Position numbers and translations under genes: made by a program
Part shown: positions 1 to 773 of the stretch, piece after piece
Numbering within the stretch: position 1 is the first letter of the stretch
Layout of the letters: each line of letters begins with the position of its first letter
DNA from: Escherichia coli
Lineage (GTDB): Bacteria > Pseudomonadota > Gammaproteobacteria > Enterobacterales > Enterobacteriaceae
Reading direction: 5' to 3' (one strand)
Assembly (NCBI RefSeq): GCF_003334255.1
Contig: NZ_QOWU01000190.1
DNA: 773 nucleotides
The notes under the pieces: model-generated
The model's database searches: none
Seen by the model: only the letters and a program-made list of their open reading frames with translations
Told to the model about the DNA's origin: nothing

Positions 1-773
1 GCCAGCGGCAGGCCGCGATGGTCGCAGTGGTACAGGTGGATTTTTCGCGCCGGCGTGTACACCGGGTCCATCTGGTTTTGCATCTGCTCCACGGTCAGGC
101 CGCACGATGCCAGCCAGCGGCGGCTTTCCTCACTCACCCGGTCAGCCAGGATTTCACTTTCCAGCCGGTCGAGCATCTGCACCAGCACCGGCGGGAACAC
201 CACACTGCCACCGTCTTCGCCGCCGGACTGCTGAAGGGCATCCGCCAGGCTGCGGCGCTGCGTTTTCGCCAGCTCACCGGTGGCAGTTTCGACCCTGATG
301 AGTGGCGTGAAGCTCCCCGGCTGATAAATCGTCTGGATGCGGCTCCTGTCGTTCTGTATCGTGGTCAGCCGGTCGCCGTCCCAGCCGTACCAGGTCACTT
401 GCGGTTTCCGTGACAGCGACATCCAGCCCGTCAGGTCCCGTTCACGCCGCCACACCCGTTTTGCCACCCTGCGGCCCAGCGGGTCGTAAAGATAGCGACT
501 TTCGACCAGCGGCTCTTCATATTGTGTCCGCGTGTAGTGCACCAGCCGGTGCTGACTGTCGTAATGGTACCGGTGAGTCCGCTCATCATCCGTGCGGATA
601 ACCCCTTCCGGGATGAGGTCGGTTTTCTCTGTCAGCCTGCCGTGACGGTCATACCGGTAAAGATAGTGCGCGTCACGGGCGATACGGTTATCCGGCCACA
701 TGCTGAGGGTGCTGTCCGGGTGCAGCTCCGGGTCGGGCAGGCGGTTACCTGCCGGGTCTGTGGCATACGGGAT
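1..773 (-). CDS. rhs: Rhs-family polymorphic toxin protein, conserved core region (YD-repeat protein); internal fragment, partial at both ends
   Basis: Minus-strand frame with codons 773..771 down to 5..3 is open for all 257 codons with no stop. Translation contains YD-repeat motifs ([47 protein letters not shown]) and the stretch ...[113 protein letters not shown], which I recognise from memory as the E. coli-type Rhs core (rhsA/B/C/D family). Paralog cannot be assigned from this window; 'rhs' is a family prefix only. Hand-counted GC about 63% (488/773) fits the known GC-rich Rhs core. No start or stop codon delimits the gene within the window. Confidence 0.93.
357..395 (-). repeat. Degenerate YD-like repeat, motif [13 protein letters not shown]
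   Basis: Minus-strand translation [13 protein letters not shown]; aromatic-x-aromatic-D-G-D-R-L-T resembles a diverged YD repeat (W in place of the second Y). Confidence 0.45.
459..497 (-). repeat. YD repeat (protein-level Rhs repeat), motif [13 protein letters not shown]
   Basis: Minus-strand translation [13 protein letters not shown] fits the RYxYDxxGR consensus; plus-strand text ttttgccaccctgcggcccagcgggtcgtaaagatagcg. Confidence 0.7.
540..572 (-). repeat. YD repeat (protein-level Rhs repeat), motif [11 protein letters not shown]
   Basis: Minus-strand translation [11 protein letters not shown]; RYxYD followed by hydrophobic RLV, a slightly degenerate YD repeat lacking the Gly. Confidence 0.6.
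630..665 (-). repeat. YD repeat (protein-level Rhs repeat), motif [12 protein letters not shown]
   Basis: Minus-strand codons tat ctt tac cgg tat gac cgt cac ggc agg ctg aca match the xRYxYDxxGRLT YD-repeat consensus; plus-strand text tgtcagcctgccgtgacggtcataccggtaaagata at 630..665. Confidence 0.7.

Follow-up and report, generated by a model that had tools for sequence, protein, structure and literature searches.

A predicted helical subdomain of about 80 residues inserted into one hairpin turn of the Escherichia coli RhsB cage

The window analyzed here, a stretch of 773 nucleotides of Escherichia coli DNA (contig NZ_QOWU01000190.1 of RefSeq assembly GCF_003334255.1), lies within rhsB, and the subject of this work is a segment of roughly 80 residues in the encoded protein that differs from the YD repeats of the surrounding Rhs shell. 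Read on the minus strand, the window matches rhsB of E. coli K-12, and that of many other strains, with 100% identity, and a match is present in 3886 of the 5426 complete E. coli genomes with a median of five copies per genome. Frame 1 of the minus strand is open over all 773 nucleotides and encodes residues 899-1155 of RhsB, window residue 1 being RhsB 899; all nucleotide positions given below count along the window, and all RhsB features lie on its minus strand. In K-12 the gene is located between nikR and yhhH and its product comprises 1411 residues. The NCBIfam model NF041261 (“RHS element core protein”) aligns to RhsB 1-1247 over profile positions 1-1261 with 2643.8 bits (cutoff 2000), the segment of interest included. 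DUF6531 occupies residues 46-123, the YD-repeat model TIGR01643 matches with E = 1.4e-40, the Pfam RHS domain PF03527 covers residues 1143-1179 (E = 1.4e-15) with RHS_repeat matches upstream, TIGR03696 (Rhs-associated core) covers residues 1170-1247, and the core-terminal DIDPLGL, an end of the PxxxxDPxGL type, is present. RhsB itself is annotated and belongs to the Rhs proteins that have been known for longest, and an AlphaFold model of it (P16917) is publicly available.

A first-pass annotation of the window had singled out positions 54-296 (window residues 160-240, RhsB 1058-1138) as a tyrosine-free segment rich in Leu, Glu, Gln, Ala and Arg. Tyrosines are found at window residues 3, 37, 39, 41, 69, 71, 80, 85, 94, 96, 129, 150, 239 and 248, so that the gap between Y150 and Y239 amounts to 88 residues, and the peptide quoted for it is exact. 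No other Tyr-free run in the 1411-residue RhsB is as long, at a shell content of 6.5% Tyr. As a chance event it is only moderately unlikely, runs of at least 88 residues being seen in 3.3% of shuffles of the window protein and about 0.17 runs of this length being expected per 1000-residue shell according to a hand estimate. Compared with the rest of the shell, the segment is depleted in Tyr (x0.17), Ile (x0.31) and Thr (x0.66), lacks His altogether and is enriched in Met (x4.2), Val (x2.2), Gln (x1.7), Ser (x1.6), Ala (x1.4), Glu (x1.35) and Leu (x1.2); the described composition thus holds for Leu, Glu, Gln and Ala, but not for Arg (x0.82). Its net charge is -3, with nine Lys and Arg against 12 Asp and Glu. 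A motif scan found no YD motif in window residues 160-240, and the repeat profile PF05593 gave no match over RhsB 1061-1142.

The position of the segment within the cage was defined by alignment to all solved Rhs structures. These alignments break at approximately RhsB 1060 and resume at approximately 1143, on both sides of a linker whose length we counted as the number of residues between the two flanking anchors, E1060 and I1143 in RhsB. Between these anchors lie three residues in the Salmonella bongori PAAR-Rhs protein (E1312-KGQ-L1316), seven in Pseudomonas protegens RhsA (7q97), 15 in the Advenella VgrG-Rhs protein (8qja), 36 in Tse5 (8cp6), 42 in Tse15 (8uxt) and 82 in E. coli RhsB. Since the alignments break and resume in this manner and the linker ranges from 3 to 82 residues, the segment is an insertion into one hairpin turn, which joins the last strand of the YD shell to the first strand of PF03527, ahead of the Rhs-associated core. 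The preceding strand (RhsB 1055-1062, ..PLIRVETA, nucleotides 282-305) is an AlphaFold2 strand (model residues 1004-1011) carrying an anchor that is near-invariant in homologs and aligns to Tse5, Tse15, 8qja and the S. bongori protein. The strand following the insert (RhsB 1141-1148, RKIHLYHC, nucleotides 24-47; model residues 1090-1097) leads into the near-invariant YHCDHxGxP anchor, PF03527 beginning at I1143 and running past the end of the window. On the combined evidence of the alignment breaks, the AlphaFold2 helices and the absence of a Pfam family, the insert spans RhsB 1063-1140, i.e., 78 residues at nucleotides 48-281. This is slightly offset from positions 54-296, as “RVE” is part of the preceding strand, while the tail “TPA” after the Tyr is part of the insert; the single Tyr of the 82-residue linker, at its position 77, falls within 54-296 and outside the Tyr-free run. 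The first-pass annotation was hence right in recognizing a non-repeat insert in the shell-forming region, but placed it inside the YD-repeat array, whereas it is found at the junction between the shell and PF03527.

Two AlphaFold2 models were calculated, one of RhsB 52-1251 from an alignment of 71 sequences (RhsB number being model residue plus 51) and a second one of RhsB 1046-1167, which comprises the insert and its hairpin stalk, from 32 diverse insert sequences. The full model reached a mean predicted local distance difference test score (pLDDT) of 81.3 and a predicted template modelling score of 0.76. Tse5 is its best structural match (template modelling scores 0.78/0.86), with other Rhs cages, teneurins and TcB-TcC ranking next, and the modelled RhsB thereby matches the known cocoon fold. 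Within the full model the insert contains five helices and no strand, with pLDDT values of 76-88 in its blocks and 57 in the Gly-rich acidic loop; the model of the isolated insert contains the identical five helices at a mean pLDDT of 86.6, helices 3-5 reaching 91-95. Helix 1 comprises RhsB 1063-1067 (TGELA, nucleotides 267-281) and helix 2 RhsB 1074-1081 (LADALQQS, nucleotides 225-248), both assigned by DSSP on the AlphaFold2 models as were the others. The low-confidence acidic Gly-rich loop follows at RhsB 1082-1092 (nucleotides 192-224). Helix 3, the longest one, spans RhsB 1093-1107 (nucleotides 147-191) and has a hydrophobic moment of 0.46, helix 4 spans RhsB 1113-1121 (EESRRWLAS, nucleotides 105-131) and helix 5 RhsB 1126-1132 (VEQMQNQ, nucleotides 72-92). 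The hydrophobic moments of the helices range from 0.32 to 0.51, and none of them is strongly hydrophobic. Because the same helices appear in the full and in the isolated model, the insert is predicted to form a small helical unit, capable of folding autonomously, on a stalk of two strands. The expectation of a helix-favoring, non-repeat segment is borne out by both models, in which ordinary YD-type beta-hairpins are not formed, and the SGGEDGG stretch described as an acidic Gly-rich linker is indeed modelled as a low-confidence loop.

In order to assess the distribution of the insert, 1.84 billion cluster representatives were searched with RhsB 1000-1250 and the linker was extracted between the anchors. 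We relied on this search for diversity, since a search with RhsB 250-1250 returned only Escherichia and Shigella, and one with the 86-residue insert by itself yielded nothing but short E. coli fragments, representing divergent E. coli variants without taxonomic breadth. Linkers of the E. coli type comprise 87 or 82 residues and differ by five residues (SGGED/EGSED) in the Gly-rich acidic loop; these two forms are found in Escherichia, Shigella, Salmonella and Citrobacter. Through this indel (nucleotides 192-224, RhsB 1082-1092), clades of the Rhs core differ cleanly in length. Forms of 73-81 residues that can clearly be aligned are present in relatives, Serratia among them, which are approximately 50% identical and bear “YHCDHLGTP”, and in more distant Rhs proteins the site is taken by other helix-rich inserts of 67-118 residues. 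The carriers that can be named are Escherichia, Shigella, Salmonella enterica, Citrobacter amalonaticus and Serratia silvae.

Among 32 insert sequences, L1074 in helix 2 (alignment column L29), E1103 in helix 3 (column E58) and L1119 in helix 4 (column L74) show no variation, and conservation extends to the hydrophobic positions of helices 3 and 4. The mean pairwise identity is 0.65 for the insert and 0.80 and 0.79 for its flanks; toward the Serratia-type forms it is about 25% for the insert and 52-65% for the flanks. Using our own script of the Nei-Gojobori method on one pair of K-12 paralogs, rhsB and rhsD, we determined the ratio of nonsynonymous to synonymous substitution rates (dN/dS) as 0.29 for the insert, 0.09 for the flanking shell (899-1060), 0.09 for the RHS domain and Rhs-associated core (1143-1245) and 0.19 for the shell at 300-898. 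The insert is under purifying selection, yet it is the fastest-evolving part of its region. The suggestion that the segment may be a conserved part of the Rhs core is therefore supported, as NF041261 spans it and as it is kept across enterobacterial genera under purifying selection; with a dN/dS of 0.29 it is not a poorly conserved spacer.

Several individual sequences are noteworthy. Two E. coli fragments, P0015 and P0037, show gaps of 24 and 31 residues inside the insert, and their contigs are only about 250 nucleotides long; these gaps may therefore reflect errors of assembly or of reads instead of natural deletions. A third sequence (P0102, 509 amino acids) contains a junction duplicating the region after the insert and looks like a recombinant or misassembled rhs core. 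An AlphaFold database entry labelled Trichuris trichiura (A0A077ZH48, 1605 residues) shares 98% identity with E. coli Rhs across the region of the insert and almost certainly reflects bacterial contamination of a eukaryotic assembly.

The insert alone belongs to no Pfam family according to a Pfam scan, the top match being “ELF” at E = 0.18. A Foldseek comparison of the insert model with the PDB yielded nothing at E <= 0.001 (best E about 1), while the same model gave 380 matches at E <= 0.001 in AFDB50. All 50 of the AFDB50 matches listed are Rhs proteins, RhsB (P16917) among them, and hence show no sign of the module outside Rhs proteins. When the profile of the 32 insert sequences was compared with PDB sequences, Tse5, Tse15, 8qja, RhsP and RhsA aligned over the flanking strands only. 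Homology of the RhsB insert to the inserts of Tse5 and Tse15 was considered and rejected on this basis, the profile aligning to flanks only (Tse5 chain positions 967-984 and 1015-1042). The insert shares its polypeptide chain with the YD (RHS) repeat hairpins (PF05593, TIGR01643) and has shell strands on both sides, but unlike these hairpins it contains no YD motif and a single Tyr and is predicted to be helical. It also lies outside the plug-forming domains DUF6531 (46-123) and TIGR03696 (1170-1247).

Concerning the toxins, Rhs cores that are at least 95% identical and bear the same insert carry different toxin tips, namely PF15606, PF14220 and PF15523, and therefore the insert is a feature of the cage, not of the cargo. 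With respect to secretion, the insert-bearing rhs gene of Serratia silvae is situated directly downstream of vgrG and ahead of a small open reading frame (ORF), an arrangement that fits delivery of this insert-bearing family by type VI secretion. The locus (L003, positions 5793-12458) is compact, consisting of vgrG, the rhs gene and an ORF of 125 residues without a Pfam match, and is surrounded by housekeeping genes, lying apart from a full type VI secretion cluster; the 125-residue ORF is likely an immunity gene. In RhsB, the PAAR motif is a remnant only, with residues 2-20 matching the last 19 of 70 model positions at E = 0.18 (L001, positions 3307-3700, RhsB 1-123), and therefore the mode in which this core would attach to a spike is not obvious.

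The closest structural counterpart has been described in Tse5 of Pseudomonas aeruginosa, where residues 1031-1062 form “Helical Region 2”. This helical protrusion on the surface of the shell is resolved in the structure and is missing in Rhs1 and RhsA, and a helping role in interfacial membrane binding was proposed for it from molecular dynamics (PDB 8cp6; PMC10684867). In the deposited chain 8cp6_B, whose 1121 residues represent the Tse5-Shell 48-1168 (chain index plus 47 being the residue number), the linker corresponds to residues 1029-1064. Both the RhsB insert and Helical Region 2 are helical and occupy the same hairpin turn between the “PGxFxPLxRxE” and “YHxDHLGTP” strands. They differ in size, with approximately 36 residues in Tse5 and 82 in RhsB, and have no detectable sequence similarity. 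Furthermore, Tse5 carries a pore-forming toxin and has a proposed membrane-binding role, whereas the RhsB insert is net acidic and accompanies several toxin-tip families. E. coli RhsA-D appear in the Foldseek list of the Tse5 paper, and its 13 homologs without Helical Region 2 are not named in the part of its text available.

Other solved cages show further states of the same site. In Tse15 of Acinetobacter baumannii, residues 1256-1267 have been called a “solvent exposed exterior loop” and form the one stretch of the cage that was left unmodelled (PDB 8uxt/8uy4; bioRxiv 10.1101/2023.11.18.567679); under either PDB numbering they lie inside the 42-residue linker. This linker shares the insertion site with RhsB but is shorter, partly disordered, not described as a folded helical unit and without sequence similarity. 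The S. bongori PAAR-Rhs protein has a tight three-residue turn at the equivalent cage position and serves as an insert-free reference, or “empty site”; its authors name the loop 1312-1315 as larger in other Rhs proteins (PDB 8qjb/8qjc/8qjd; bioRxiv 10.1101/2024.02.26.582050). The paper on Rhs1 of Photorhabdus laumondii makes no mention of this loop.

Taken together, we interpret the segment as a conserved helical subdomain of about 80 residues that is inserted into a hairpin turn of the RhsB cage, projects to the outside and likely represents a generic exterior module, a reading to which we assign a probability of roughly 0.7. By analogy with the inserts of Tse5 and Tse15, the subdomain would project on its hairpin stalk from the outer face of the cage, outside the wall, the plug and the lumen. 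It could serve the enterobacterial Rhs cores of type VI secretion as a generic module of the exterior, offering a putative surface for docking or buttressing close to the C-terminal end of the cage, either for contact with the spike or an adaptor or for cage stability. We consider a generic exterior module most likely, and favor it over a toxin-specific or membrane-inserting role, because the insert is independent of the toxin, net acidic and conserved mainly at hydrophobic positions that look buried, its remaining positions being free to drift.

A number of points weigh against this interpretation. To our knowledge, K-12 has no type VI secretion system, and therefore the nik/yhhH context gives no function. 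The exterior position would follow from the equivalent site in other structures and not from the RhsB model. The insert profile does not align to the inserts of Tse5 and Tse15, which possibly are independent insertions whose behavior may differ. The faster evolution of the insert compared with its flanks is as compatible with a decoration under loose constraint as with a binding surface. Cages with a turn of three to seven residues are functional, and therefore the insert is dispensable for the basic cage mechanism. Finally, the exteriors of type VI Rhs proteins have been described as smooth and undecorated in the S. bongori study (bioRxiv 10.1101/2024.02.26.582050).

Of the competing explanations, the one that survives best, albeit unlikely in our estimation, is that of a neutral, tolerated decoration: the turn would be permissive and the insert kept because its fold is harmless, with no function of its own. 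It would account for a turn length ranging from three to more than 100 residues among Rhs proteins, for the insert evolving faster than its flanks and for conserved positions being mainly hydrophobic, as if the fold alone were maintained. The conservation data speak against it, as a similar length and the same helix pattern are kept in at least five genera down to about 25% identity, the dN/dS is well below 1, the polar residue E1103 is invariant and the only deletion variants seen come from the contigs of about 250 nucleotides. A more specific role, in which the insert would be a docking module particular to enterobacterial Rhs cores and recognized by the VgrG spike, an adaptor or a factor triggering cage opening, seems rather doubtful to us. 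Should it hold, the loading of Rhs effectors would gain a new structural element, and the idea from the Tse5 study that helical protrusions at this turn mark membrane-targeting toxins would be weakened.

We regard it as quite improbable that the insert is a membrane-binding element like Helical Region 2 of Tse5, whose helices would form part of an amphipathic face docking the cage on the target cell's inner membrane for toxin delivery. The shared insertion site, the helical content and the moderately amphipathic character of the helices by hydrophobic moment (0.43-0.51) are compatible with such a role. Nevertheless, the insert is net acidic and without sequence similarity to that of Tse5, and it does not track one toxin type, the tips PF15606, PF14220 and PF15523 found with it including none shown to be pore-forming; the role in Tse5 is itself based on a molecular dynamics model. 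An internal element, either a plug or cap, as considered in the first-pass annotation, or a chaperone that faces the lumen and receives the unfolded toxin, would suit the location of the insert immediately upstream of the C-terminal region closing the cage, but is highly improbable because the plug domains map elsewhere and cages with turns of three to seven residues close normally, and same-site inserts are exterior in Tse5 and Tse15 and the RhsB insert does not vary with the toxin.

Upstream of the insert, the window encodes strands of the YD-repeat shell (RhsB 899-1057, window residues 1-159, nucleotides 297-773), as established by translation, motif scan, AlphaFold2 beta-strands and alignment to the shells of Tse5 and S. 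bongori Rhs. The motif scan of the window protein located YD motifs at residues 39-46, 69-72 and 94-99, including YLYDPLGRR. A second non-repeat stretch is found at nucleotides 666-767 (window residues 3-36, RhsB 901-934), where 33 residues are Tyr-free, Pro/Asp-rich and predicted as coil with a pLDDT of about 70; it adjoins the position of “Predicted Helical Region 1” of Tse5 (873-914), another variable surface region. On the plus strand, antisense ORFs opposite the rhsB frame were noticed at positions 18-413 (131 amino acids) and in two further cases of 63 amino acids each. They were rejected as genes, since such frames are expected in coding DNA of 59-66% GC and have no other support. A scan of the window for RNA families gave no Rfam match.

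Rhs cages are usually pictured as smooth beta-cocoons, the only functional parts of which are two plugs and a protease. A helical protrusion at this particular turn has already been described for Tse5, and the RhsB insert is a lineage-specific decoration; a description of the larger enterobacterial module was not found in the literature searched, the coverage of which was incomplete. The understanding of what Rhs proteins are is unchanged by our data. The analysis adds that the core of enterobacterial Rhs proteins, the classic E. coli RhsA-D among them, bears a conserved, predicted helical module of about 80 residues where S. bongori Rhs and P. protegens RhsA have three to seven residues. Helical protrusions at this turn should be taken with caution as a signature of membrane-targeting toxins. 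Being deletable or swappable, the module provides a testable handle on the part that the cage exterior may play in loading, secretion and toxin release.

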